From NCBI RefSeq assembly GCF_026210795.1, contig NC_089435.1:2976001-3040000 (forward strand): a stretch of 64,000 bases of DNA. The letters are read 5' to 3'. The notes beneath the pieces were generated by a model, which saw nothing but the letters and a program-made list of their open reading frames with translations, was not told the origin of the DNA and made no database searches. Shown here piece by piece: positions 2,605-32,716 of the stretch. Source of the stretch: Rhizophagus irregularis (taxonomy: Eukaryota). Position 1 is the stretch's first letter, and every line of letters begins with the position of its first letter. The position numbers were made by a program, and so were the translations under genes.

Positions 2605-4910
2605 ATTTGAGAAAAAAAGTATTTGAATAATATTGAAAATTACAAGTGTGATCTCTAAAAAAAAAGTGTGATCAAACCGGGTTACAAGGTGTAATCGCGT
2701 AAATAAAGAGAGATAAAGGCATAAAAGTTTATATAAAGTATATACAAAAGTTATTTTACAGCACTTCTAGAGTCTACTTTTAACGTAAACAGAAAAAATT
2801 TTATATTTTAAAAATTGAAAATAGTTAAAATAGTTAACAGTCAGTAAAAAAATTAGTATGTATGTATGGAAATTTTTTATGCAGATCAATTTTTTTGAAA
2901 ACCCCAATAAATAACTCGGTTTCCTCCTTTACCCAGTGGAAGTTACCTGTAGGTAAGTATTGCAACATGGCCCATCAATATAGGTTATTTGCGTCTAAGT
3001 ATAGAATAGATGACTTGGGCTTATCTGTGATCCATTTACCTTCTCCTATATCTGGGTTATTTGCACGAGCATATCGTTTACTTACCATAGAGATTCCACC
3101 ACGTAATCCTTGTTCTACTATCATGTACATACCCTGGTCAGTTATAAGATCCAATCTTTGCCCTGTTATGAAGAATAGTGCATCCCATGCAAAGCCTGGT
3201 GTTGAGTAATACCAGAGAGGATCTAACCCATATTTTTTCAAGGCCATTTCTCGGAAATTCTGAAATATATCAGCTAGTAGGAGGACGTCAGTTTTGAGAT
3301 AAAAGTCATGATAATCTTGCATTGTTTTACATCCTGCTTTTTCCCATACATACTGTGCATATTCGTATTCTTTATCACTAATGTGGGTTTCATTAAGTTT
3401 GCTATAGAATGCTCCTTTAGATGGTAAACTAGTTTTCTCGAACTTTTTCCAGTCATCCATGTATTCATCATACAGGTAGACACCTTTCTTAAGATAAATC
3501 TCGAGTAATTCAGATGGTATTTGACTTCGTGTTATCTTAAAGTTTTTAGGATGTGCAAAGCATCTACCTGCATCAATTCGCCATAAGTGTTGTGGATTAC
3601 TACATTCTTGTGCTCTACATTTTTCTGCGCCTAGGTTGGATGCTAATTTGTCGAGACTTGATTTTATGAATTGTAAGCTGTCTATAAATCGAAGAGAACC
3701 TAACTTGAATGCCATATACTTTTCCATGTTATAAGGGATAGAATCAATATCATAATCACATTCCATTGCACCAATTCCTTGCATAATCATGTGTCCATCA
3801 TATCCTGATAAATTGTGAAAAATTACTGGGATATGCATTTCGCGAGGTTTTATGGATAAGTCAAGATTACATCCTCTATGTGCTGCACCTTAATACCTTC
3901 CTGTAATATGGCAGTGATCTCTTACTTTATTTCCATCTAAAAGGTTACAACATATCCAGCAGTTTATTGCATTATCATAACTTGCTTGCTCTTGGATTGT
4001 TAACAGCATCATTTCCATTGGATTTCTGAATTTGTTACGGATTGCTTCAGCCTCATTTAGCACTTCGATTACAAATTTTTGTGCTGCATTTTCTCCTGTA
4101 AATATTTTCTGTGATTCACTTACTCATATCTTACCTTAATATACAAGTATGAGCAGGGATTTGCTCTTGTACTTTCTTGGTTTTCTTATCTTTATCTGCA
4201 TCTGTGGGTGGTATGTCCATTACTAGGGCTTCAAAGTCTGCAACAAAGTAATATGGGACTTGCATGCGGCATTTCCAGTTCTTGAATTCATATATATCAT
4301 TTCCTTTCTTTACTGATGGCATGCGGTCTGCTTGTGGGGTTTTATTTAATCCTCGACATATTGCTACATATTTGTCATGGATTTCTTGTTGATGTGTGAA
4401 GTGGGAGATACACCATCGGCAGACAAATGTAGCATGTCCATCTTTATACGTTTATTTACTAAGCGACTCATATTCTTAATCCAGCAATAGTGCTGCTTTT
4501 CCCCGTTACTAATAAGTACTAAATCTATTATTTTACAGCCCTCTGCATCATCCCTATCGGTAACATATATTGGGCATAAGCGGTGATCACACCATTCACA
4601 GATGCAGAGGGCAATAGTTGGATTCTGTCACTCAAATCTTTTTAGAATTACCTCATCAGCTTGTACTGGGAACTCGATACTTTCAAAGTTTAACTCATTT
4701 ACATACTCCTTATACTTGGAAATTCTTTTTGCATTCTTTTCTACTGGATGTAATGCTGCTAGGATTGCCCGCTAGAAGCATTTGTCATCATCATTAGCTG
4801 GATTTACTACTCCCTTTTTCGTGGCAAGATCTTTTGGGAGTGGTATGTGTCCTGCTCCTGTAGGTGGTTGGAATTGCAAGATTTCTATGAATATTTTTTC
4901 TACACGATAG

Positions 4911-7558
4911 CACTAGTCAAAAAAGGACAATTTGACCTAAATTTGACCAGGTCGAATATAGGTTGAATGATGATCTAATCTGTGTCAAATTGAGGTCAAA
5001 TTTTTGGGCACATTTAGGGTGCCAATCGTCTCAAATTTGGACAAATTATTCGACCATTATTCAGGCTTAAATTGACCAATATTCAATATTAAAACTTTAA
5101 GCTGAATTATGTTCTAATAACAACCCATTTATTTATGAATTTATTTTGATTTTTTTTATCAAATTTATTAAATAAATGTATTTATTAATGCTTAAATACT
5201 TTATAATTATATTATTATTATTGCATCTATCTAATTTACAAAAAATATTGCTAATTCAAATACAATTCCACAATTACATGATTCATGTATTCGTATATAC
5301 GAATATTTGATTGTTCTTTAGCAATCCGCCTGAACCTATAAAAAAAAGAAAAGAACGGTTAGTAACCGTTCATAATATTAAAAAAAAATAAGAAAAAAAA
5401 CCAAGATTCGTACTTACTTACGAATCTTTGGTTTTTTCCGTTCTTCAGAAGACACCCGAGACACCTAGGACCTAAAAAGAAAAGAAAAGAACGGTTATTA
5501 GTAACCGTTCATAATAATACTAAAAAAAATAAAAAAAATAAACCAAGATTCGTACTCACGAATCTTGGTTCCACTTTTCTGAAGATAGGAAGCCAACTCG
5601 AAGCTTAAAAAAAAAGAAAGAACGGTTATTAGTAACCGTTCATTAATATTAAAAAAAAAATTAAAAAAATAAACCAAGATTCGTACTTACGAATCTTGGT
5701 TCCACTTTTCCCAAAGGTCAGAAGTCCACCCGATCCTAAAAAAAGAAAGAACGGTTATTAGTAACCGTTCGTAATATTAAAAAAAAAATTAAAAAAAAAA
5801 TAAACCAAGATTCGTACTTACGAATCTTGGTTCTTCTTTTCCCAAAGGTCAGAAGCCCACTCCACCCGATCCTAAAAAAAGAAAGAACGGTTATTAGTAA
5901 CCATTCATTAATATTAAAAAAAAAATTAAAAAAATTAAACCAAGATTCGTACTTACGAATCTTGGTTTTTCCACACAAAAGCCCACCTGAACCTATAAAA
6001 AAAAGAAAGGAACAGTTAGTAAACCGTTCCAAAATGATAAAAAAAAATAAAAAAATATATATATAGAAAGATTCGTACTTACGAATCTTTATCTTTGGAT
6101 TTTCATTCTTTAGAAGTCTATCTGAACCTATAAAAAATAATAAAGAATGGTTAGTAAACCATTCGTAATAATAAAAAATAAAAAAAATTAAAGATTTGTA
6201 CTTACGAATCTTTGGGTTTTCGTTCTTCAGAAGCCCACCTGAACTAACTATAAAAAAAAGAAAGAATGGTTAATAAACCATTCGTAATAATAAAAAATAA
6301 AAAAAATTAAAGATTTGTACTTACGAATCTTTGGGTTTTCATTCTTCGGAAGCCCACCTGAACTAGCTATAAAAAAAAGAAAAGAACAGTTAGTAAACCG
6401 TTCATATATTAAAAAAAAAAACAAAAAAAAGAACCAAGATTCGTACTTACTTACGAATCTTGGTTTTTTGGTTTTCCTTCTTCAGAAGTACCCACCCGAA
6501 ACCTAAAAAATAGAAAAGAATGGTTATTAGTAACCATTTGTAATATTTTTAAAAAAAAAGAAAAAAAAATAAACCAAGATTCGTACTTACTTACGAATCT
6601 TGGTTTTCCATTCGTCAGAAGTCCACCTGAACCTATAAAAAAAGAAAGGAACGGTTAGTAAACCGTTCCATAATAATAAAAAAGAAAAAAAAAATTTAAG
6701 ATTCGTAATATAATACTTACGAATCTTAAAAAAATACTCCTTTTTCCGTTCCCATTCACTTTCATTTTCCCCTTTTGTTTTACCCTTTCCTTTCATTTTC
6801 TCTTTCCCTTTCGTTTTTTCCTTTGTCTTACCCTTTTCCCTTCGTCTTACCTTTCCCTTCGTTTTACTCTTTCTCTTCGTTTTACTTTTTCCCTTCATTT
6901 TACCCTTTCCCCTTCATCTTACCCTTTCCCTTCGTTTTACTCTTTCCCCTTCATCTTACCCTTTTCCCTTCATTTTACCCTTTCCCTTCGTTTTCCTGAA
7001 ACCTATAAAAAAAACACGAACGGTTAGTAACCGTTCCATAATATTAAAAAAAAACTACTAAGATTCTACTTACAAATCTTAGTTTTTTTATTATCACGAA
7101 GCTCGTTTCGTCTGGCAATACCTGCAAGAAAAAGAAAAAAAGAAACGTTAAAACGTTTCTAAAGTAAAAAAATGACTTTCCCTTCCCATTTACCTTATTA
7201 TCCAAAGTCCAGTGCGTAGTTTCAACCGGCATTCCCATAGAATTACTACGAAAAGGGAAAGGGCCACATTTAAAATTTAAAAAAAATAAAATAAAATAAT
7301 TTTTTTTTGTTTTTTTCCGCACCTATAGGGCCAAAGGACGAGGAAAAGAAGGAATAAAAGTTTAAAAAAAAATGCATAAGATTCTTTTTTAAACTTTTGA
7401 TATGCGTAACACGTGATGTGGCTATTCGACCAGCATGGTTAGTTATTCGACCAATGTCTAATTGTAGATCATTGCTAATTAAAGTTGAATTTTTAATTTT
7501 AGTCGAATATAGGCCGAATTTTACTAAGACTGAGTGAATATTCCTTTTTCGACTAGTG
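4911..7558. mobile_element. Non-autonomous CACTA (CMC/EnSpm) element
   Basis: TIRs CACTAGTCAAAAAAGGA / TCCTTTTTCGACTAGTG; 3-bp TSD TAG (4908-4910, 7559-7561). Excision restores GSGWKFYRVEKIF in the polymerase. Confidence 0.95.
5335..7075 (-). repeat. Array of ~12 units (mostly 120-135 bp): hairpin-containing intron + short variable exon
   Basis: Minus-strand unit GTAAGTACGAATCTT...GAACGGTTACTAACCGTTC-polypyrimidine-AG. Palindromes AAGATTCGT/ACGAATCTT and GAACGGTT/AACCGTTC recur throughout the array. Confidence 0.85.
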
Positions 7559-7892
7559 TAGAATTTCCAACCTGATCCGTAATTTACATAGTCTTCTACT
7601 TTCTGCATGATTCTTGCTAATGCAGAGTTAAATGTACCATTAATATCTGTTGATGGTAGGATTGGCATATTGCGAGTTTTAAATGGTATATTATATCTGT
7701 AGATATACTCTACTCCATCATCTTCACTAAAGTTACAATCTCTGAATAATCTCTCAAGGTAAGAATCTAAACGTCTTATTGTGGCAAATATTCCAATTCT
7801 TACCTTTATTGATTCCAATCGATTTCATTCATCCTGAAGAATATTCTGGATTGTTTGACTGTGTGCTGTAAGAAATGAAGCATAGTCATGCT

Positions 7893-8105
7893 AGGATCCC
7901 GAAATATATATGTAGAGGTCAGGTCCAGAAGTGGTCCAAAATACGCATTCTTTCAGGGCCGGAATTACGATAATTTCAGCCATTATCTAAATTAGGAAAT
8001 ATTATTTTGGCTGGGATTATCCATAAAAGGAATGATCTACATGATTTTTTTGACTCATTATACGCAAACTCTGACCTGACCCTTTTATGTATATTTCGGG
8101 GTCCT
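7893..8105. mobile_element. 213-bp MITE, copy 1
   Basis: TIRs AGGA(T/C)CCCGAAATA / TATTTCGGGGTCCT; 8-bp TSD GTCATGCT (7885-7892, 8106-8113); near-identical to 24926-25138. Confidence 0.95.
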
Positions 8106-8547
8106 GTCATGCTCTCCAGGTGTTCCTATAGCAATATCGGCCATAAAATTTGAGTCTGTTAACTCCTTTCCTATACGTACCTGATCACAATGTTCAAAGA
8201 CTACCTCATAATGTGAATCTGGGTTGATTTGCATCATGGGGTTATCTCTTTATTAGTTGCCGCCATTTGTACTTCACGGATTTGGCAGATCTCATCCTCA
8301 TATTCCTGCAATTTTACATTTGAGCGTGGATATTGGATGGACTTGACAGATACCTGCTTAAGTTCAGCTAGAACTGATCGGATGACTTATCTGTGTTGGA
8401 CACTTCTTGCTTGATGTGTTGATATCTTGTAAACTTTTTAGGTTCCTCTTTTATTCAATTAGATTTTTTCTGAAATAAAAAATTAATTGTCCGCCTACCC
8501 TATGAAGGTAAAAAAAGAAGGAGACAGATTAGTACTGTCTTCCTAAA

Positions 8548-9111
8548 CTATTTATCACCATCTGAGTCATCATCATCCAAGTCACCGAACACATCCTTAT
8601 CAGGAGTATCCCCATCCTTAAATAACTCGAAGTTGCATATCATTCAGATGTATTCTCCCTTATTAGTTTCTTCTGATATAAAGCTACAATGGAGAATAGT
8701 AGCTTGTTCTATGACTACCATTTCTATGAACCTGGTATACTTTTCTTGAATAACTTTCTCTATTTTATCGGTAAGTTTATCAAGATTTATACCACCATCT
8801 GCACAATCTCACCAGTAAGCCCTTTCAGCTTTGTTACATATATTTGCCACCTGTTTATATGTCTCCTTGACTTGCATGTGCCACTTCCAGAGTATTCGTT
8901 CAGCTTCGGCTCTCCAGATTGGATTGATTTCTAGAAGATGTGGCCTGAAATTGTTACTTGGAATGTATTCCAGGATGTGGCCTACAAGTTCAGGGATTTT
9001 TAACGGGGTTTGCTTTCTGCATTGCTCAAGAAGTATTCTCCTATTGATAGTCATAAGATCGGAGACTGTACAACTGAAGATTGTTGCTAACTTTTTTGCG
9101 GTATATGCCAT
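8548..9111 (-). pseudogene. Intronless Polinton-borne ORF (~187 aa) with an F-box-like segment and two internal TGA stops
   Basis: TPLKIPELVGHILEYI..LLEINPIWRAEAERILW resembles an F-box. The frame continues through two TGA codons to an acidic tail and TAG at 8548. Confidence 0.5.
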
Positions 9112-9429
9112 GTTATGTACTGTTTATCTGTATAGTTACTTAGTACCTACCTTTTATTCAATTACATTTTTTTCGGTATAAGAGTAATTGCTTGCCTTGC
9201 TATTCCGCTCTATTGACTCCATGGCTGGTTTTCTGGATGGGTTAATATTTCCTTACCTTTTTTGGCTCTGTTGGTTTTAAAATCCTATTTCTTGTTCAGT
9301 TGGGGTAAGTAGATGAAAATATAAATAGGATGAATAAAAAGTAGATAAAATAGGTAATGTAAGGAAATAAGTAGATGAAATAGGTGGTATAAATAGGTAA
9401 AAATGGTGATATAAGTAGGTGAAAATATA

Positions 9430-9873: not shown

Positions 9874-10305
9874 GGGTTGATCACCCTTTCTCAGTGGTAA
9901 GTGACTAAAACCCTCATTAAGCCTGAGTATAGTGAGGTCGCAGGTTCAATTCCACCGATCACAGAAATTAAACAAATTATACTGCGAATGCTACAACAAA
10001 TAGCGTGAAGGTACAGGGATTAGCGTAGTTAGACTGCATCATTATGAATTAGTGTGTACAGTTAGGCCGCACATTTCAACTAAAGGTCATGGTATCTTTC
10101 TAACGTTCCCTATGAGGCTATTGGCATGTGCGCAGTCCTGTCCTTGAGGTCACTACTATACCTTAGGGGGACTTCCTGTCTGGGTGGTCACTCTACGATA
10201 CCACTTGGGGTCAGTAATGGCTAAATGGTCGTCCTAGATGGTAAAGCTGAGGGTGCAATGTCTTAGTTGTAGTTTGACCTTCTGTTAGGTCTTAGACCAA
10301 CCAAG

Positions 10306-12486
10306 TAGAGGTATGCTCCGAATCCGGTCAATCCGGATATCCAGTCATCCATCCGAAATTTGACCAGATTTGGATTGATCCGGATGATTCATCGGATTGA
10401 CCGGATGGATCATCGGATATCCGGTCAATACTTGCTCACCAATTTGACTGGATGGTTGACCGGATATCTGAATAATTCAGTCAATCCGGTGAATCCGGTG
10501 AATCTGAATTCAGTTTTTTCTACTTAATACTTTTTATTAATATTAATTAACAATTAGAAATTTTATAATAATAAACATAGTATTTATTTTTACGTTATTA
10601 CAAATGATTTTTAACAAATTAGTTGACACAATATTTATAAAAAGTTTAAGATTTAGAGGTCCAAGAAGGTGTCTCCCTAAAAAAAGAAGCAAAAGGAACG
10701 TTAATTACGTTCCTAAAAACAAAAAAACAAAAATACCTTTCCCCCAACTTACCTTTATAACCATGCCGAAATCCAGGTCCAAGAGGCGTCCTCCTAAAGA
10801 AAGAAGCAAAAGGAACGTTAGTTACGTTCCTAAAGACAAAAAAAACTCAAAAATAACCTCCCCAACTTACCTTTATGAAATCCAAATCTGGGAGGGCGTC
10901 TCCTAAATAAAAGAAGCAAAAGGAACGTTAATGACGTTCCTAAAGACAAAAAAAAAAGATAAAATACCCTCCCCAACTTACTTTAATAGCCCAAGCCGAA
11001 ATCCAGGTCCAGGAAGGGCGTCACCTAAAGAAAAGAAGTAAAAGGAACGTTAATTACGTTCCTAAAGACAAAAAAAACCCAAAAATAACCTCCCCAACTT
11101 ACTTTAATAGCCCAAGCCGAAATTCAGGTTAGGAAGGGCGTCACCTAAAGAAAAGAAGCAAAAGGAACGTTAATGACGTTCCTAAAAAAAAAATAAGCAA
11201 AACACTCTCCCTCAACTTACTTTAATAGCCCAAGCCGAAATCCAGATCCAGGAAGGGCGTTACCTAAAGAAAAGAAGCAAAAGGAATGTTAATTACGTTC
11301 CCAAAGACAAAAAAAAACCCAAAAATAACCTCCCCAACTTACTTTAATAGCCCAAGCTGAAATCCAGGTTAGGAATGGCGTCACCTAAAGAAAAGAAGCA
11401 AAAGGAACGTTAATGACGTTCCTAAAGACAAAAAAAAAACAAAAATTAACTTCCCTAACTTACTTTAATAGCCCAAGCCGAAATCCAGGTCCAGGAAGGG
11501 CGTCACCTAAAGAAAAGAAGCAAAATGAACGTTAATTACGTTCCCAAAGACAAAAAAAAACTCAAAAATAATCTCTCCAACTTACTTTAATAGCCCAAGC
11601 CGAAATCCAGGTTAGGAAGGGCGTCACCTAAAGGAAAGAAGCAAAAGGAACGTTAATGACGTTCCTAAAGACAAAAAAAAAAGATAAAACACCCTCCCCA
11701 ACTTACTTTAATAGCCCAAGCCGAAATCCAGGTCCAGGAAGGGCGTCACCTAAAGAAAAGAAGCAAAAGGAACGTTAATGGCGTTCCTAAAGACAAAAAA
11801 AAAAGATAAAACACCCTCCCCAACTTACTTTAATAGCCCAAGCCGAAATCCAGATCCAGGAAGGGCGTCACCTAAAGAAAAGAAGCAAAAGGAACGTTAA
11901 TTACGTTTCCAAAGACAAAAAAAAACTCAAAAATAACCTCCCCAACTTACTTTAATAGCCCAAGCCAAAATCCAGGTTAGGAAGGGCGTCACCTAAAGAA
12001 AAGAAGCAAAAGGAACGTTAATGACGTTCCCAAAGACAAACAAAAAATCAAAATTACCCTCCCCCAACTTACCTTTATAGCCCAAGCCAAAATTGAGTTC
12101 CAGGCAGGCGTCCCTTAAAGAAATGAAGTAAAGGAACGTTTAGTGACGTTCCCAAGACAAAAGAAAAAGAAATTTACACTTACTTTTCGAAATTCAAGCC
12201 GTCCAAGTCATTCCGAAGTCCAAGTCCAAGTCCGTCCTAAAGAAAAAAAGGTGTTTTTTTTAAAAAAAAAACATTTATGTTAAAAAAAAAAAAAAAAGTT
12301 ATGAATTTGACCAGATTATCTGATCAATCCAGTCAATTCGGTAATCCGTGTAACATCCGATCAATCCGATGTTATCCAACGGATCCATCTGGATTATCCG
12401 CAATCCGTTCATTCTTAATCCGGATGATCCGTTTTTTGATCGGATCGGATGACGGATTGAACGGATTTCACTGGAGCACACCTCTA
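10306..12486. mobile_element. Non-autonomous hAT-like element
   Basis: TIRs TAGAGGTATGCTCC / GGAGCACACCTCTA; 8-bp TSD CAACCAAG (10298-10305, 12487-12494); dense ATCCG/CGGAT subterminal repeats at both ends. Confidence 0.93.
10675..12250 (-). repeat. Array of ~13 units (~121 bp): ~79-nt intron + mostly 42/43-nt exon
   Basis: Minus strand GTAAGTTGGGGAGG...GGAACGT(A/C)ATTAACGTTCCTTTTGCTTCTTTTCTTTAG, then exon GTGACGCCCTTCC...GGGCTATTAAA. Confidence 0.88.
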
Positions 12487-12881
12487 CAACCAAGGTGTTT
12501 GTGCACAGAACAGATAGCATGGTTATGGGTTCGATTCCCTACTCTTTGGGTCCTGGTTGGTGATCCCTGGTGGTTGATACCCACCATAAGGGGTGATCCT
12601 GGACAGATGCCTGCTACTTCCTGTCTGAGTGGTCACTACAAAGTATACCACTTGGGGTAAACAACTGTACTATCAGTGCTAGGTAATTGCGGGCTGTAGT
12701 GGCCTTTGAGTGAGACTTAATACCTAAAATGGTGGTATGGAAGGGTACTAGATGGTTGATGTTACCTGTCGAAAGTCCTCCATGAAAGTAGGTGCTCTCT
12801 AAAGGTCATAAAATAAATTGAGTATCAGTATCATGCAATGGATATAGGATGAGTAGGCGGCGTATTCCTAGCTTCAGATCA

Positions 12882-15358
12882 CATCAGGAGTTATATTCTA
12901 TATGGATTTATATGAAAAAATGTATGTAAAATCTACATACACTATTCTATGTAGTTTTAAAGACCCAACGTGGAATTTATGTGGGTTTGATTTTATGTGT
13001 AAAATAGATTTATATGGAGTCTATATAAATTTTTTGCATTAATTTCAAATAAATTTTATGTATTTTTTGAATAGATAATATAATATTTAATAATGTAAAT
13101 TATAAATTGCAAATTTATTATTGTTTACTTTTAATATTGTACAATAAATTACAAATTTCTTTAGTTATCAACTAAAATTAATTGTAAAACATTTAAACGA
13201 TGCAAAGCCTTCAACCAGCAGGTTTCAGAACTTACCGTTACTATCCATGTTGACAAAGCATCAAATCCGAAGCTGATCCTATAAAAAAATGAAAAATGGT
13301 TAAAAATCATTTCTTAAATAAAGAAAGAAGTTTCAAAATTGAGTAAATTTCGAAACTCACCTTTCACATAACTATATTCACTCCTCCAAAGTGCAAAACC
13401 TACAAATAATTAAAGAAGCAGTTAGTAGTAAACTGTTAACTTTAAAACTTTAAAATTTTCTTTTTTTTTTTAATTAATTAAAGTTTCAAAACTTACATAT
13501 TCATTCATCCTACAGACAAATTTTTATCTGAATCCCACGACAGGTTAGAGGCTTAAAGCTAAGTCCTATAAAAAAAAAATCATTAAAGAAGAACACTTAA
13601 ATTATTTTTAAAATTTTTTGAAATTCATCAAAAATTCACAATTAATTCAAAAATTGGATGTCGAATTTCTACAAAAAATAAAAAAATGTTAAAGTTCTTA
13701 AAAATTATGAATTTACTCAAAGATTTAAAAAGGAAATTTGCATTTTTGTTAAAAGAGTGAATTGAAGCTTACCTCACCCTAGGAATTTGAAATTAGAAAA
13801 AAACATACAAAAAAGAAAGAAATATTTTTAAAGAACATTTTTAAAGGTGGTTGAGCAGTTTTCTATAAGGTAGAAAGAAAGAAGTTACAAATTGACTTTT
13901 GTTTTAAAAAAAGTAATGTTTTCAAAATGAAAACTTGCCCAGGAGTCACCTAAAGAAAGAAAAAAAAAACTGAAAACTATTTGCTGAAATACATAAATTA
14001 ATAAAGAAAAAGTGATAGTACACGTCCAAAGATATCCAAAAGAACCAGAAGAAAGAATAGAACTGCAAGTACAGTTCGTTAAAATAAATAAATTTTAAAG
14101 AAAATAAATACAATAACTGAAATACCAAATTTCCACATGTATATCTAAAAATAAAAAATCAAAAAAAATTTCACTGGATCTTGCGAATTACTACACGTCC
14201 AAAGACCCAAAAAGATAACTGTTTAAAAGAAAGCAAGAAATATAAATCATCATATAAAAATTAAATGATTTAATGAAACCCTAACTGAAATTCTGCACGT
14301 TCATAGACCCAAAATTTCAGCCGCTTAAAGAAAAGAAAAAAGAGCCATTTAGAACTGTTAAAAAAATGAAAACTTACAGAAATATCGTGTTCAGAAGACT
14401 AAAAAAATCCAAAAAAAAAAAATTGAGTTATAAAATATTTTTAACGAGAAAGGGGAAAGAATAAAGGAGAGGTAATGGAAAAATGAGGAAAAGGAAAAGG
14501 GAAGAATGAAAGAAAGGAAAGGAAAAAAATGAGAAGGAAAAGGGGAAGAATGAGAGAAAAGATAATGACAAAAGAGGAAAGAAGACTTCATTGAAAAAAA
14601 AAGTTTAAAAAAAAATTAACTGTTAACTGCAAGTAAATACATTATATCACGTGATACATGTGATGTAGTTTACCTTTTTTGAAGTGGAAAAAGTTGTAAA
14701 GCTATTGAAAACGTGAAGATGAAAAGGAAGAGAAAAAAATTGATAACAAGAAAGAAGATAGTTGAGAAAATATTAAAGAGTTTATAGAAGAAGAACGAAA
14801 AAAGAAAAAAAAGTGATAATTTCACGATTAAGCCTAAAAAAAATTTAGGTCGTACAAAATCATGTAATGTAACTAAATAGTTTATAGTATAACTGTATAA
14901 CCAAACTATAATAGTTTGTTCTAGTTATTTCGAATGAATTTACACTATTAAAAATTAACTTATATAATCCATATAGATTTATATGAAAATTTTAAATAAA
15001 ATGTATATTTGAATTTTATATGTATATAATCAGTATATAAAATGTTTGTATAATATTTATTTGATTTTATATTATACATGGATTTATATTTAAATAGTTC
15101 TGTATTTGTATAATTTTATTTAAAATATTTGCATCATATTTATTTGGCTATAAATTACACATGAATTTATATTTAAATAATTTTATATTTATATGCATAT
15201 TATATAGAATATTTATAATATTTTTACATTTATATAAAAAATAAGTAGATTATTTATATATATTACAGATTTATAAAAATTTATGTAACAAATTTATATT
15301 GGATATATATAAAGTTATAGATATTACATAGAATCTATAAAAAATACAACTCCTGATG
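12882..15358. mobile_element. Non-autonomous TIR element of the CATCAGGA family, with a degenerate internal intron/micro-exon series
   Basis: TIRs CATCAGGAGTTATATT / AATACAACTCCTGATG; 2-bp TSD CA; minus-strand GTAAGT/GTGAGT...polypyrimidine-TAG units between ~13230 and ~14380. Confidence 0.88.
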
Positions 15359-18333: not shown

Positions 18334-21300
18334 ATGGAAGAAACCGGCCTTAAAGAACCAAATTATTATATCAATTGGTTAGAAAAATCGATTGCAGATG
18401 AATATCTCAATTATTATGAATATTCTGAATTTAAAAATTTAAAACCGATAGGAAATGGTTCATTTGGAAGTGTCGTTCGTGCTAATTGGAAAAATGCTGG
18501 AAATTTTTTTGCTTTAAAGACCTTCAAAAATAATTGTAACACAACACTAAAAGAACTTGTTAACGAGGTAACTAATCTCGATTCTTATATTCTAGTTTTT
18601 ACATATTATAAGTATTTTTTTTTTTTTTAGATAAGATTACAAAAAAGAGTTGACTTTCATGAAAACATTATACGGTTTTATGGAATAACGAAAGTAGAAA
18701 ATGGTAAGTTTTAAGTTTGGTATACAGTGTGGGACAAAAAAAATGAGAAAACTAGTCACGTGATATAAAATGATCTACATCGCCAAAAATAGATTGTTTT
18801 TGTACCACCTTAATACATAATAAATAACACGTTTGTGGCGACGTTTGACAACCTTTGTGTTTACCAACACCCTTTACTTAACGAGAAAATTCCCACATAA
18901 AATCTTGCGCAATGACGAAAACTTACGATGAAACTCTATTAAGATTGTGGAATAACGGTATACATGATGCTAAAAAACTACACAAGCTTACGAACATTTC
19001 ACTATCCACAATTTATAGAAAAATCAAAAAAATCAAAAAAAATGGTTTGTTAGAGCATGCTGGAGGGAATGGTAGACCTAAAAAGATTATCGCAAGCGCC
19101 TCCCGTGTACTTAGCCAATATGTAAGGCATGATTCTTCTCTTTCCACAAGGACTTTAGCGAGAAAATTACAAAATATAGGTGTAGAGGCATCATATAGAA
19201 CTGTTGGAAGGCACCTTTCAGGTGTTGGCTATTTAAAAAGACTACCCAAAGCAACACCAATGCTGACCGAAGCACACAAAATAAAACGGGTAGAGTGGGC
19301 AAGACAACATATTAATGACCGATGGAATAAAACTTTGTTTACAGATGAAACAGCATTCCAGCTTTTTAGGAATACTGTAGAACGTTGGTATAAAGGAGAG
19401 AGGCCGGTTCGGCGTATGCCTAAAGATCGTACAAAAATTATGGCGTGGGGCGGTTTCAGCGCAAAGGGGAAAACAAGCTTATTTTGTTTCAAACAAATCA
19501 TGAATGCCGAATTTTATGTGGAAATTCTTCGTAGACATGCTCCTGAGATGTCCCAGATGCTTGGTGATCATTGGCGCTTTCAACAGGACAATGATCCCAA
19601 GCATACGAGTCGTCTTGCAAAGGCCTTCCTCACAGAAAATTTCCCAGTAGTTTTAGAGTGGCCATCCAATAGCCCCGACTTAAACCCCATTGAAAACTTA
19701 TGGTCAATTATTAAGAATAAAGTAGAGAAACGGATGCCAAAAAATCTCGATGATCTGGAGAAATTTATGGTGGAGGAGTGGCAAAATATACCAAATACCG
19801 TTCTAATCAATCTTTCAAAGTCAATGAAACGACGTTGTGAGTTAATTATTGAAAAAAATGGTGAACGTATACCATATTAATTTTTTTTTAATAAAATTGT
19901 CTGGTCTTTGGCTTTAAAATAAAAAAAAATTCACGTGATTTATTATAATAATTGAGCGTGTATGACCTATGTTTTGATTCTCATTTTTTTTGTCCCACAC
20001 TGTATATTACATTATTTAATGAGCTTAATTTTAATATACTCTTTGTATCCAGAAAAATATTCGTTAGTCTTAGAATATGCTAACAATGGTACATTAAAAA
20101 CTTATTTAAATGAGCATTTTAATGAACTCACTTGGGCCGATAAATATCAATTAGCATTTCAACTAGCCACTGCAGTAGAATGTTTACATGATTGTAATAT
20201 TATTCATCGTGATCTGGTAATAATAAATTATTAGCTTTGTAATTTGTTATTTTATTATTTTATTATATTCTTACTAAATAAGATTCTTTATAATAATAGC
20301 ATGCAGATAATATACTTGTACATCAGAAAAATCTAAAACTGACGGATTTTGGTTTATCAAAAAAAATCGCCGAGGTATCAAGCAATGTATCAAAAATACT
20401 TGGCGTAATACCTTTCATTGACCCCAAAAAGTTACATGATCAAGGTTACAAATTAAACAAAAAATCTGATGTATACGGAATAGGAGTTTTAATGTGGCAA
20501 ATTTCAAGTGGCCGTCAACCATTTTTTGATTATAATTATGATGTAAGTTTAATCTTATCCATAGCAAATGGTAAACGAGAAGAAATTATTGATAATACTC
20601 CTAAAGAGTATAGTAATTTGTATACAGGTAATTTAAATTAATAATTTTATAATTTATAAATTTCTTGAAAGAAAGTTTAACAATATTTAAATAACTAGAA
20701 TGTTGGAAATATGAGCCAGATGAACGTCCAAATATACAAAATGTCGTTTCAATCCTTTATGCACTAATATTTCCTAAACAAGATGATATAATTATTGATA
20801 CTGTTAATAAAGAAAAAGAAAACAATCAACTAATAGAATCAATTGGGACCATGGATTTAAATAATGCATTGATGTCAAATACTGGATTAAATTTAATGGA
20901 CACTGAGAAAAATTTATCAAATACAACAATTCAAACAAATTCATCAATATTTCCATATGGGTCGACATTTGATAAGGTAAACAATATAGTTGTTGAAAAT
21001 TTAATTGAAGAAATAAACAGCAAACATGATAGGGAAGGTATTAATTTTCAAGATATTAAGCAATTTATTAATCAACAAGTATTAGAATTAAATCAAAGCT
21101 TGGACGATCTCATTAAATGGCTATCTAAGCAAGTAAATCCACAATATGTTTATTTACTTGGATTACTTTATTATTATAATATTGGTACAGATGAAGGTAG
21201 TACAAAGGCATTTGAACTATTTTTAAAAGCATCTGAAAATAATTATTCATTTGCACAAGTTTATCTTGGAAAATGTTATTATGATGGTGGATATGGAATT

Positions 21301-26126: not shown

Positions 26127-29100
26127 CCCTATAAAAAAAAAATGTCCAGTTTTTGTTCAGAAATTGTCTGCCTATATTTTCCAGACAAAAACAGGATCTA
26201 TAAACATCCAGAATATTGCAATATTCCGGACATTCATAAATAAGGAATTCGTCCGGTTTTTGCCATATATTTGTCCGTCATTTGTCCAAATTTTGATTAT
26301 TCATAAATAAGTAATTTGCTTATATGATTTACTTTATAGTTTTTTTAGCAGTATTATTAGTATTATTTATTTATTCAAATTAAAAGCATAACAATAAAAA
26401 TCATAGACTATTTATTATATTATAAAAACAATAACTTTATTATAAATTAATCAATTAATACGATATGCTCCACTAATATTATAATCTACTTTCATTAAAA
26501 TTAAGATACAAGTAATTTTAACCTTGCTGAATAATTTTACTTAAGCATAAAAGAGTAGTTTCATTTGAATAAAGTGATGAACTTACGTTCTAAAGTTGGA
26601 AAATAGAAAAGTAAAATTCAAAAATTAGTATTCAATTAAAAAATGCAACTTACTCTACGAATATTGTACCTATACTTATGAAAATCTAAACACAAGTAAT
26701 TTCGACCTCATTGAACAACTTTACTTAAGCACAAAAGGGTAATTTCATTTGGTGAAAGTGGTGAAATTACGCTCTGAAGTTTAAAACAGAAAAATAAAAA
26801 TTTTGAAAACCAGTACTATTATAAAAAATTATGATTTCCTCTATAATTATCATACCTATGCATATGAAATAAGTATAATTTAACATTGCTGGACAACTTT
26901 GCTTCATAAAAGATAGCTTCGTTTGGCCAAAGTGGTGAGATTATGCATGAAATTACGCTTCAAAACTAGAAAATAAAAATACAAAAGTAAAAAGAAGAAA
27001 TTAAGGTACTATATATTATATAAAATATTATAACTTTACAAGAACAAGTAATAAAAACTGAGTTAAAAGAGTTTATTATATGTTAGTTCTTTGCTGAAAC
27101 TTGGAGTTTACAATCGATATTGATTAGATATCGCAATGATATCATTACGATATCATTTGCGATATTTTGATAAAAAATAGATTCGACATCGTTAAGTTAG
27201 TCGTAACTGTATTTATTCGATATTGATTAGTTCGATATCTCTGCGATATCGCTGCGATCATTATGCGATGTAAATATTATCATGTAACCACATCGTAGTG
27301 ATGTCGTATTAACATTGAATTAATATTACAAAAATATTTGACATTTATTTGATATCGTAACCACATCGTAGTGATGTCATATTAATATTGAATTAATATT
27401 ACAAAATATTTGACATTTTATTTGATATCGTAACCACATAGTAGTGATATCATATTAACATCAAATTAATATTGCAAAAATATTTTACATCTATTTGATA
27501 TCGTAACATCAGGAAATTATATAGTGCGAAAAGTTGCGCAAGTTTACACATCATAATATTTCGTAAGCTTCCAGACCCGCCACAAGTTTGCGTAAGCGTA
27601 ATATTTCGTAACTTTTTAAAATATTTCGAAATATTACGATATGCAAAGCTTCGTAATTTTACGATTTGTAATATTCCGTAATTTTGCGGTTCGCAATATT
27701 TCGTAATTTTACATAATATTTCGTAAGTTTTCAGACCCGCCGCAAGTTTGCGTAAGCGTAATATTTTGTAACTTTTTAAAATATTTCGAAATATTACTGT
27801 ATGCAAGGCTTCGTAATTTTACGATTCGTAATATTCCGTAATTTTACTGCGTAATACTTCGCAACTTTTTAAAATATTTCGAAATTCTATGATGCGTAAT
27901 GTTCCATAATTTGACGATTCGTAATATTCTGTGATTTTACACAACTTAATATTTCGTAATATTTCAAAATATTTCGATAAATAATACTTCATTTTCTGTA
28001 CTATAAGTTTATATAATGTATGTTTTATTAGATATAATCATAAAAAATTACAAGTATTTATTAATATATACAGAATACATAAAAGTAAAAAAGAGAAAGA
28101 GTAGAGTAACAATATTATTAGACGTAAAAAGAAGAGAAACAGCTATAGTAACGTTAGTATTAGATATAAAGATAAAAGAAATATTGTTATTATTGTTAGT
28201 ATTAAGGTAAAAAGAGTTAAAGAAACAGTAAAAGGAGTAAAAGAAACATGGATATTATCGTTAGTATTAAAGTACAAGTAAAAAGAAATAAAGGAAACGT
28301 AGATAGTATTGTTAGTATTACGACATAAAGTAACAAAGAGGTAAAAAAAAACGCGTTAATATTAAAATAATTAGTATTAATAAATAAATATTTCTATAAC
28401 TGCAAAGTAATTGAACAAAAGAATAAAGAAATAAAGAGAAAGGAAAAAATAAACATGTTGTTAGTATTGTTAGTATCGTTAGTATTAAAGTACAAGTAAA
28501 AAGGAATAAAGGAAACATGGATATTATTGTTAGTATTACGATACAAAATAACAAAGAGGTAAAAAAAAATGAAAATAATTAGTATTAATAAACAAATATT
28601 TCTATACCTGCAAAGCAATAAATTATGAAATATATGTAAATATATTGTATATAATTAAAGAAATAATAGAAAGAAGAGACAAAAAAATTAAAAATATTGA
28701 ACAAAAGAATAAAGAAATAAGAAACAAAAATAAATAAGACAAAAACGCGTGCATGATTAAATGATTAAATGATTAAATCACATGCAAGGATCAGCCTAAT
28801 TTTGATTGGCCAGAAATCATGTACATCGTATAGCGGGTGTGACATAAATAAATTGTGACTGAAATTTGTGTTCAATTTGTGTTCAATTTGTGTTGATAAT
28901 TCTGGTAAAAAATTTGTTAATTTTGGCCAAATTTCATTAAATTTGTTAAATTTGTGTTGAGTTTGTGTTGAATTTGTGTTGCGTAATTTTTTATTTATCA
29001 CAAGGGGATGATATTTAGTAATTGCATGTACGACGTACAAGATTTTTTTTATGATTTTTTTAAGAAATGTACGCAAAATATTTAATCAGAATATAATTGT

Positions 29101-29535
29101 TTTATTTTTAAATATGATATATTGATGATTTTTTTTTAAAAATTCAATAGAATGTGCTAATAATAAATTGTTTTATTTTTAAATATAATATATTGATATT
29201 TATATTTAAATAACCAAAACATGTACATGATTTTTAATTATTTTTAATTGAAATCAAACTAAGATTTTTTTTTAAAAAAAATTAAAATAAATTAAGTGAT
29301 TTATATCTATATTTAGAATCATGATATTTATATTTAGATAATCCATATCCGCATGAGATTTAATTAATATGTTTAATGATGAAAAGTCTAATAAATTAAA
29401 TTTTAATTGAAACGAGAAATAAAATCAAACCAAAGAGGTATTGTTCAAATTTTATTTAAAGTGACATTTTACGACTTTCTTTCAAATTTTTACTCATCCC
29501 AAAATCAAATTATAAAAATAAAATCAAATCTAATA

Positions 29536-30176
29536 ATGCCTCGCCAAACACGTCGTCGTTCCTATAACGTCCATTGGAACTGGGCTATGATGGACGAACT
29601 TGTCGACATACGCCGCGACAGAAACCGCGCCTACCATAATATTAATGGTAGAAGCCGCCATGATTTTTGGGACTCTGTTGCCAATAGGTTCATATGACTA
29701 ATATCTATAATTTTCTTTAAGAAAGAATTTAAATTCAAATTAACCAATCCATTTAATTGAATCAGAATAAATAGAATATTTCGAACGAGGGTTTCCGGGC
29801 AACAGTGCAGCCAAAAGTGGAGGAACCTCGTCAGGGATTACCATGTAAGTAAATAAATAAAATTACATTCATTTAAATTAAATGTATTTACCGAATATTC
29901 AAACTGATTTTGATATTTAGAACTATGTCCTTTATCGTAATGGTACCCCTGATCGGCCTGGGCGGCGGCTGTAGACGCGTACCGGCCAAAGATATTATCG
30001 CGAATTTAGAACGAGATTTTGGGAGAGGCCGGGTAATTATACTATAATAAAATTTTATAATTAATATTACATTCTATTTTACGTTCACATTTTAAATTTG
30101 ATAAATTTGATTAATTTTAGATACGCGTGATGATCGTAGGAGAAGGAGAAACTTACCTACGTATCGTAGAAGATAA
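29536..30176 (+). pseudogene. Myb/SANT-like (trihelix) DNA-binding protein, 4 exons, Arg-rich tail, one in-frame TAG
   Basis: Exons 29536-29687, 29766-29844, 29921-30032 and 30121-30176: VHWNWAMMDELV..FWDSVANRIN..SGQQCSQKWRNLVRDY..RFWERP. Confidence 0.8.
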
Positions 30177-30569
30177 TTATTTTTATTTTTTTATTTATTA
30201 AGTGAGTAGCTAGGCCCAGTCCGTACCAAATATCGGCTGGAGACTCACGTTTTTTTTGGGCTGTGACTGATACTGACGTCCACGCCGTACAGCCTGGGTA
30301 CTATTTTATAAAATAGTAGCGAACAAGTATCAAATGTATATTTTTTTATTAAGTTATAATAAAAATTAGAATTTACTTTAATTTTTAACATAAAAATTGT
30401 AAATAATAAAAAATTCGTAAATAAAAATAAATTTGCTTTCCCAAACTTAAAAAAAAAAGGTGTTTATATAAAAGAAAAGGTGTTTATATTATTTTTGATT
30501 ATTCAATAGTATCACATGCCCCTTGTATACGTTCTACTGCATACGCAGTTTACAATCTCGTAAATTTTC

Positions 30570-30960
30570 GAAACGGAATATTACGCAGGTTTACAGTCTC
30601 GTAAATTTTCGAAATATTTCAACCGTAATATTACGCAGGTTTACAGTTTCGTAAATTTTCGAAATATTTTAACCGTAATATTACGCAGGTTTACAGTCTC
30701 GTAAATTTTCGAAATATTTCAACCGTAATATTATGCAGGTTTACAGTCTCGTAAATTTTCGAAATATTTTAACCGTAATATTACGCAGATTTACAGTCTC
30801 GTAAATTTTCGAAATATTTCAACCGTAATATTACGCAGGTTTACAGTCTCGTAAATTTTCGAAATATTTCAACCGTAATATTACGCAGGTTTACAGTTTC
30901 GTAAATTTTCGAAATATTTCAACCGTAATATTACGCAGGTTTACAGTTTCGTAAATTTGC
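30570..30960. repeat. 60-bp tandem subterminal repeats (~6 copies)
   Basis: AACCGTAATATTACGCAGGTTTACAGTCTCGTAAATTTTCGAAATATTT recurs every 60 bp. Confidence 0.92.
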
Positions 30961-32716
30961 AGAATATTTTGACCGTAATATTGCGTAAATCTTACGATAT
31001 TGTAAACTTACGTAATATTTTAACCGTAATATCACATAAATCTTACGAAATTGTAAACTTACGTAATATTTTGAAATTTTTCGAAATATTATGCCATAAA
31101 CTTTCATAAACTTACAAAATCGTAAACTTACGCAATTTTTCGCGCTATAAAATTTCCTGATGAACCACATCGTAGTGATGTCGTATTAATATTGAATTAA
31201 TATTACAAAATATTTGACATCTGTTTGATATCGTAGCCACATCGTAGTGATGTCATATTAACATTGAATTAATATTACAATTTTATTTGATATCGTAACT
31301 ACATCATAATAATATCATATTAATATCGAATTAATATTACAAAAAATGTTTTACATTTATTTAATATCGTAACTACATCGTAATGATATTATATCAACAC
31401 TGAATTAACATCACAAAAATATTTTTATTGTAATATATGTTTATTATTTATTATACATTAATAATAATAATTTTTTATTAGTGGATTATTATGGGTGAGT
31501 GGAGTACGTTTCTTTTCTTCCTTTTTTTTTTATTCTTTTCTTCTCTTTTTTATTCTTTTCTTTTCGTATGTGAGTGGATGGATACGTCATTTTCAATTTT
31601 AAAATATATATATATATATATATAAAACAATCATGATTAATAAAATGTATTATTTGTAAAATATATTTAAAATTTAATACATAACCTTGGGATAATAGTT
31701 AGAGCAGGTAATTCCAGGATTTTGTAAAGAATAATAAAAATGATAATATTTTTAAGTTAGTTCTTTCTTTAAATTTTTTTGAGAGTGTTTTGTTTCTTAA
31801 AATCATAATATTGTAAAAAAATGCTGGTTGCTACGACTGACGGACAATGACAAATTGTCAGGCTACCCCCAGACAAAGTAATTGGAAGGCGGAAAATGCC
31901 ATAAATATCCAGCCCTATTTTACAACATTTTCTTCCAGGCTAAAGCAAATATTACAAAAGAAATTGCAAATATATTTAACAAGCAATAGATACATGGCCA
32001 TTGAAAAATATATTCACACTTCATATTGTAATACCACAGTCTAACAAAGAAATTGCAAATATATTTAACAAGCAATAGATACATGGCCGTTGAAAAATAT
32101 ATTCACATTTATACCACAGTCTAACAAAAAAATACTCAACCCACAACATATTGTAAAAAAAATATGAAAAATACGCGTATATCCTATTTTCATACCTTGC
32201 TTAACAGCTCCACTATTTATTTAAAAAATGGCTTTTTTCTCTTTTGTATGTGGTTAAGTGGGTACATTTTTCCTTTCTTTTATTCTTTTCTCTCGTATGT
32301 GAGTGGTGGGTACATTTTCTTTTCTTTATTCTTTTTTTATTCTTGCTTTTCGTATGTGGGTGTTTTACTATGTTGAATATATAAACTAAAGTGTCCCAAA
32401 GTATTGTTAATATTGTAAAAAGATAATTAAAGTATACTTTAAAAAGAGAAAAGAAGAGATGAACAAAATACCGTAAAGTGTTAATATAAAAGACAAGAGA
32501 AAAGTGTATTTTTGAAAATAAACAAAAAAAATCTCATTAATAAACGCGAATTTTAGCTATTTTTAGATATCACATGCATGTAATTAAAGTGATTTTAATT
32601 GGTTAATTTTAATTTATTATTACATCATGCATATGATTTTATTGGTTAATTTTAACCAAAATTTTATACGATACAAATTAAATAATTATTTTATTATATT
32701 TATATAATTAATATAA

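Follow-up and report, generated by a model that had tools for sequence, protein, structure and literature searches.

A transposase-less hAT element of Rhizophagus irregularis carries a spliced array of thirteen hairpin introns and micro-exons

The window analysed here is a stretch of 64,000 nucleotides from Rhizophagus irregularis (contig NC_089435.1, positions 2,976,001–3,040,000 of the forward strand), consisting of AT-rich DNA dense in transposons, in a genome for which much of the repeat DNA is described as unclassified (PMC11075540). At positions 10306–12486 lies an element of 2,181 bp that encodes no transposase. It is bounded by 14-bp terminal inverted repeats (TIRs) matching at 13 of 14 bases, the left one (10306–10319, plus strand) starting with TAGAGG and the right one at 12473–12486 (minus strand), and it is flanked by a duplicated target site of 8 bp (TSD), CAACCAAG, whose right copy (12487–12494) is identical to the left (10298–10305). 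The subterminal regions inside these repeats (10320–10510 and 12311–12472) each contain 13 occurrences of the word ATCCG/CGGAT, which is not present in the 1,800 bp between them. Ac/Ds-type hAT elements are described as having 8-bp TSDs, short TIRs and subterminal repeats within ~200 bp of both ends (PMC3260210); as the TSD, TIRs and subterminal words found here are hallmarks of this type, the element was classed as a non-autonomous hAT, in agreement with the host proposed by the initial annotation. Elsewhere in the window, an intact-looking, intron-less Tc1-type transposase of 332 aa (18882–19880; PF13358 and PF01498) is present inside a gene that we take to be of kinase/Sel1 type, and an element-like stretch at 27284–31430 has TATTACG-rich repeats of 25 and 50 bp at both ends, with no intron layout.

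Between the subterminal regions of the hAT element is an array of introns and micro-exons which lies entirely on the minus strand. About 13 units had been expected, and 13 donors were found, all reading GTAAGT, at positions 12183, 12072, 11950, 11828, 11706, 11585, 11463, 11342, 11220, 11102, 10981, 10870 and 10752. The array begins with a first exon (exon 0; 12184–12236, 53 nt counted from a TTTAG) that is homologous to the first exon of a related array on soil contig L002, described below. This is followed by unit 1 (12073–12183), made up of intron 12183–12115 and an exon of 42 nt, and by a core array of units 2–10 (10982–12072) with 76–80-nt introns, 42/43-nt exons and two alternating unit types, including intron 10 (11025–11102, 78 nt). 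Next are intron 11 (10903–10981, 79 nt), a segment at 10753–10902 comprising exon 11 (10902–10871, 32 nt), intron 12 (10870–10794, 77 nt) and exon 12 (10793–10753, 41 nt), and intron 13 (10677–10752, 76 nt), the splicing of which is read indirectly, from a loose read end. The AT-rich terminal exon (10530–10676) has AATAAA at 10588 and 10538 and is the likely 3' end, as RNA depth tapers to near zero here. Terminator-like matches were set aside because they follow a bacterial consensus. The intron length of ~79 nt given previously suits the twelve introns of 76–80 nt and not the first, of 69 nt. Similarly, with exon lengths of 42, 42, 43, 43, 42, 43, 42, 43, 42, 43, 32 and 41 nt in order, sizes of 43 and 42 nt apply to the inner exons and not to the two near the end.

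Each intron is ordered as GTAAGT, a G-rich stretch, a U tract, a branch hairpin, a pyrimidine tract and TAG. The hairpin, GGAACGT-5 nt-ACGTTCC (7–8 bp), was found in all 13 units, as had been noted before, and encloses a TAAC branch motif whose branch-like A sits 24–25 nt upstream of the acceptor. A TTTAG acceptor is present in 12 of 13 introns, the first intron of the window copy reading TAA/AAG. The signals of U2 spliceosomal introns (GT, branch motif, pyrimidine tract, YAG) are thus represented by 13/13 donors and 12/13 TAG acceptors, and GC content is 33% in introns vs 50% in exons (units 2–12). When a single unit was put through 3000 dinucleotide shuffles, 8 of the results had a donor, branch motif and acceptor in this layout on either strand. 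An inner TTTAG, found 39–42 nt into seven of the 13 introns, was considered as an acceptor and rejected, having no preceding branch motif and occurring in none of the 15 RNA joints listed.

Splicing was examined using four raw-read RNA runs from two studies, representing at most three samples under one species label, with reads mapped to 10250–11150 (units 10–13 and the left end) and the strand deduced from GT-AG, the libraries being unstranded. Seven of the 15 joints listed link exon ends at a predicted donor and acceptor. The joint of intron 10 (11022>11101, CT..AC on the plus strand) was covered by 33, 19, 46 and 128 reads in the four runs and that of intron 11 (10900>10980) by 44, 36, 55 and 150; a further 61, 56, 65 and 95 reads show the joint of intron 11 at a variant end of the exon. 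A skip of 188 nt from donor 10981 to acceptor 10794 was seen in 48, 38, 54 and 127 reads, and three 'go-back' joints, from exon end to exon start, in 121/122/129/277, 41/35/48/135 and 2/4/9/19 reads. We take the remaining eight joints to stem from unspliced reads of other copies that slip from one unit to another. Loose ends matching the junction of exons 0 and 1 (68, 71, 56 and 86 reads; median loose length 29–37 nt) were also found, and the first exon is likely to be near the transcript start. Separately, a loose end at 10764 (44, 40, 46 and 120 reads) reveals a well-expressed family copy in which exon 12 is followed by another last exon.

The depth of intron 10 relative to exon 10 was 0.59, 0.59, 0.44 and 0.019 across the four runs. 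Three poly(A) runs therefore keep 44–59% of intron depth and ~98% of it is missing in run X23, whose library label is ambiguous. Subterminal DNA was covered at a depth of 0–4 vs several hundred over exons (almost nil in the left subterminal region), which makes genomic DNA carry-over an unlikely source of the unspliced reads; these may represent retained introns or opposite-strand RNA. RNA depth gives out ~250 bp inward of the left TIR, close to the two AATAAA motifs. Reads at least 99% alike to the locus numbered 108 of 1507, 112 of 1369, 78 of 772 and 127 of 498 (7–26%), so the splicing evidence speaks to the family rather than to the locus itself, most reads deriving from other family copies. 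At that level, the splice-junction mapping suggested by the initial annotation showed removal from RNA at the predicted sites for introns 10 and 11, the double skip and the junction of exons 0 and 1. Lack of splicing, which the initial annotation gave as one refutation, is thereby contradicted.

A pattern scan of metagenomes returned two loci, on soil contigs L001 and L002, and pattern scans found none in prokaryote genomes and none in viral contigs (three patterns). Contig L002 starts at a terminus that shares 90% identity over 125 bp with the left subterminal region of the window element, and from this terminus a cassette which includes the first exon runs inward (L002 97–1322), with introns of 70–140 nt and exons steady at 41–42 nt. 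As the cassette of the window runs inward from the right end and that of L002 from the opposite terminus type, either full-length elements carry a cassette facing inward from each end or the cassette was inverted in one lineage. Contig L001 carries a hAT transposase gene (PF05699, E 1.5e-19) with one frame break, a candidate for the transposase of the family; the termini of its element lie off the contig, and it is linked to the window copy only through the homologous array. The named relatives of this transposase are all Rhizophagus proteins, and its use as a query gave no loci in viral contigs or prokaryote genomes. Past its stop codon, 4–5 decayed units, ~67% like those of the window, lie on the opposite strand; this array runs toward the transposase stop, with the last donor ~200 nt beyond it, AATAAA on both strands between the two, and acceptors decayed in 2 of 4 cases. 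Across the loci, exons measure 32–43 nt and introns 69–140 nt, and the donors are invariant in three lineages that are ~67–80% alike.

The convergent arrangement in L001 could mean that RNA from the cassette runs into the 3' end of the transposase gene, with splicing slowed by the hairpins, or double-stranded overlap, feeding a small-RNA silencing that holds down the activity of the family. This would resemble the transposon KDZ1 of Cryptococcus, for which an antisense ncRNA is reported to yield RNAi-dependent small RNAs over the transposase (PMC11588098), and the high intron depth of three runs would also fit. However, such a convergent orientation was found in L001 only, a single locus, the cassette of L002 is at the other terminus type, and elements without a transposase keep the cassette. 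Antisense RNA, moreover, does not need thirteen introns, the donors are perfect consensus and X23 is ~98% spliced. We regard this explanation as unlikely, though serious.

The possibility of a coding origin was also considered. The spliced exon chain of the window has 6–12 stops per frame and no open frame of more than 41 codons in three-frame translation, and so the view that no long frame survives splicing was upheld, and the second refutation named by the initial annotation, a conserved repetitive protein encoded by the exons, likewise did not hold. The unit may nevertheless derive from a captured or accessory gene in which it coded for an acidic/aromatic repeat of 14 residues: what looks like the ancestral exon measures 42 nt, and across four successive 42-nt exons of L002 two frames remain open, for 70 and 83 codons. 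Against this, each of the three loci contains exons whose length breaks the frame (40, 41, 43 or 32 nt), and we reckon that chance alone would leave a GC-rich unit of 14 codons free of stops, in any one frame, in about half of cases. Together with the stops in the window chain, this renders a decayed coding repeat highly unlikely. The exons have no other match within the window (best E 0.92). A long hairpin precursor was also rejected, the spliced chain folding at -128 vs -142 +/- 6 kcal/mol for 30 shuffles and therefore being less stable than these.

A second array is found nearby in a transposase-less CACTA element (4911–7558, TSD TAG), which has an inward-facing cassette. Its array (5330–7073, minus strand) comprises 12 donors and 12 branch hairpins, the introns being predicted from this layout, which is the same as that of the hAT array, as stated earlier. 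The first CACTA intron (7193–7122, minus strand) can be aligned over its whole length with the hAT intron at a score that none of 2000 shuffles reach, its hairpin being kept through a double change, and it is matched by a profile made from hAT units alone (nhmmer E 5.6e-4). A GAACG..CGTTC branch stem is common to the hAT introns and the 12 repeated CACTA introns, and the six of the latter that were scored were modestly above shuffles (1–27 of 500). Seven host-type introns (approximate, from gene models; 11–24% GC) scored 14–35 against the hAT intron vs 67 for the CACTA intron. Given the homologous first intron and the common branch stem, shared ancestry or exchange appears more likely than pure convergence as the origin of the two arrays. 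Of the two origins offered by the initial annotation, exchange is thus the better fit and pure convergence is disfavoured; its description of the hAT array as sequence-distinct holds only in part.

The donors of the CACTA array are mostly buried in a long stem. Some of its units carry a doubled donor (GTAAGTAAGT), and a purine-rich tandem repeat of 18–19 bp at 6755–6994 forms the long second exon of the cassette (minus strand). The element interrupts a broken organellar/viral-type DNA polymerase B gene (~2900–9200, minus strand; PF03175), presumably Maverick-like, for which no relative was found in viral contigs. Outside the hAT and CACTA elements, model R1 gave no match under E 0.1 in the window, other tandem arrays at 27–33 kb and 36.6–41.5 kb are without an intron/exon layout, and those at 42.7–45.5 kb were covered by pattern and model scans only. 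At 13100–14400 (minus strand) there are several short intron- and exon-like segments with no open reading frame, one of which (13360–13279) places a branch motif within a small stem, and a TTTAG/GTGAC junction as in the hAT; R1 matches there at E 0.5 only, and this is possibly a third, older cassette.

As the GAACG..CGTTC stem is the part common to both arrays, and as host-type introns resemble the hAT intron far less by score than the CACTA intron does, the product might be the excised hairpin intron itself, as a stable RNA or a splicing-factor sponge, or the palindromes might be sites in DNA for an anti-silencing protein encoded by the element, with splicing then incidental. The stem, however, is short (7–8 bp) and its position relative to the acceptor is constant, no Rfam family was matched at the gathering score (two weak hits, far below threshold, both lie outside the hAT), and the subterminal word of the element differs from the palindrome. 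This alternative is judged to be very unlikely.

The dimeric higher-order repeat that had been suggested was also confirmed. The two unit types switch at 9 of 10 steps in units 2–12 (shuffle P = 0.024), and a plain odd/even dimer test gave no signal (observed value reached by 114 of 252 partitions) because of one phase slip; the array is a dimeric higher-order repeat with this single slip. For conservation, units were defined by the hairpin, giving 26 hairpins in all. In the 22 that are followed by an exon, GTAAG always occurs 52–63 nt downstream; the other four comprise a terminal hairpin, a hairpin next to the end of its contig, and two from which acceptor, exon and donor have been lost together, leaving longer yet intact GT-AG introns. 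The GTAAG columns show 0 parsimony changes vs 16–27 in the next seven columns, these fast columns being slippage-prone G runs. With units defined by the donor and the last unit of each locus left out, 11 splice-critical columns varied less than random columns (P 0.009 and 0.006), and the AG class had two changes, one of them an alignment shift. The hairpin covariation score was reached by 1 of 500 shuffles, with three pairs having two-sided change, on 20 related sequences (9 from the 13 units of the window) of a kind that can pass without structure; three of four two-sided changes are at CpG sites and could be decay. Exons, at 0.86 changes per column, are as conserved as hairpin stems (0.86–1.14), so that homogenisation alone explains much. 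These data are suggestive of selection on the splice signals.

The similar conservation of exons and splice-side features is what would be expected if one intron, with its flanks, of a transposon UTR or by-product transcript had been tandemly duplicated without acquiring any role. A duplication spanning any whole intron would give such an array, which would splice since its copies are young and homogenised, similar to the filler of maize Ds2. The dimer structure and block deletions are ordinary behaviour for tandem repeats, and the link with CACTA could be explained by one capture event. Less easily accommodated are the donors unchanged over the three diverged lineages, the amplification by CACTA of a different unit in the same layout, and the abundance of the RNA, from which the introns are almost completely removed in one run. 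Neutral amplification is a serious alternative, though on balance we think it unlikely.

The explanation that we favour, tentatively and at somewhat less than an even chance, is that dense splicing makes the hAT transcript resemble that of an intron-rich host gene and so dampens silencing in cis. The transposase-less element carries an inward-facing, non-coding cassette of 13 introns and micro-exons whose transcript probably starts just inside the right subterminal region and ends at a poly(A) site ~250 bp before the left TIR. The array would have grown by tandem duplication, later as a dimer, with the hairpin tuning access to the branch site, the splice signals under selection and the cassette kept for its splicing. 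The intron-rich transcript might then pass an intron-sensitive host surveillance, leading to less silencing of the element. A benefit in cis would best fit the large number of strong introns, the almost complete splicing of one run and the persistence of the cassette in elements that moved without a transposase gene. Such a cassette is retained in two elements that lack a transposase yet have intact ends and TSDs, and the decayed acceptors of L001 coincide with a broken transposase frame.

Introns are reported to counter HUSH repression in human cells (PMC8770142) and, through Aquarius/EMB-4, to hinder nuclear RNAi in Caenorhabditis elegans (PMC5554785). R. irregularis is described as having CpG methylation and Argonaute-loaded small RNAs, with many low-methylation copies among its recently expanded hAT elements (PMC8647823). 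No report of intron-based self recognition in Glomeromycotina was found in the literature searched. Standing against a protective role of splicing, the intron depth of 44–59% and the hairpins that cover the branch site (and, in CACTA, the donor) are compatible with slow splicing, reported as a trigger of silencing in Cryptococcus (PMC5851062), and the position of the L001 cassette, antisense to the 3' end of the transposase gene, fits an inhibitory role. Retention of the cassette may also be hitch-hiking next to a terminus. The broader proposal, that DNA transposons of mycorrhizal fungi evolved a protein-free anti-silencing module of hairpin introns and exchanged it across superfamilies, draws on three hAT-type sequences and one CACTA element and is, in our opinion, doubtful.

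If the splicing-based protection is real, hairpin-tuned introns that only load spliceosomes would let an element pass an intron-based check of self and non-self; a transposon would thereby have built its own answer to intron licensing, and these fungi would have to possess such a check. Introns shield transgenes in animals and betray transposons in Cryptococcus, and an intron-stacked, non-coding element tests which rule the fungus follows. Even if neutral, the array documents one origin of spliced non-coding transcripts and of portable splice sites. No description of tandem intron arrays in transposons was found in the full-text literature searched, which held few subscription papers, and none in the accessible main text of four articles on Glomeromycotina (PMC13465315, PMC10234402, PMC8647823, PMC11075540; supplements and repeat libraries lie outside this). 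The spliced array of 13 introns is real, and its architecture is apparently undescribed.

Near-identical, structured introns are known from introner-like elements and the repeated stwintrons of ascomycetes, in which they are dispersed into unrelated genes, whereas the introns here are in tandem, amplified together with exons and inside a TIR element. The maize element Ds1 can reportedly be spliced out whole from the host message. Closer in structure are maize Ds-del/Ds2 elements, described as having short TIRs, an 8-bp TSD, subterminal repeats of ~200 bp and a replaced transposase, as here; their filler is scrambled or captured DNA (PMC3260210), unlike the ordered, spliced cassette of 13 introns in the window. 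KDZ1 of Cryptococcus neoformans is also a fungal DNA transposon with its own ncRNAs (CNAG_12018 and CNAG_12019), one antisense to the transposase; among the loci here, a convergent orientation is seen in L001 only. KDZ1 belongs to another superfamily, and the accessible text makes no mention of introns in tandem arrays (PMC11588098), in contrast to the 13 near-identical hairpin introns of the hAT element. HUSH and EMB-4 share with our proposal the mechanism by which introns protect a transcribed locus, but are described as host surveillance in human and C. elegans (PMC8770142, PMC5554785), whereas the array here is built by a transposon. Finally, stalled-spliceosome RNAi (SCANR) of Cryptococcus is a fungal case in which the introns of transposons are tied to silencing; there, poor introns are reported to betray the element (PMC5851062), while the donors of the present array are perfect and splicing in one run is ~98%.
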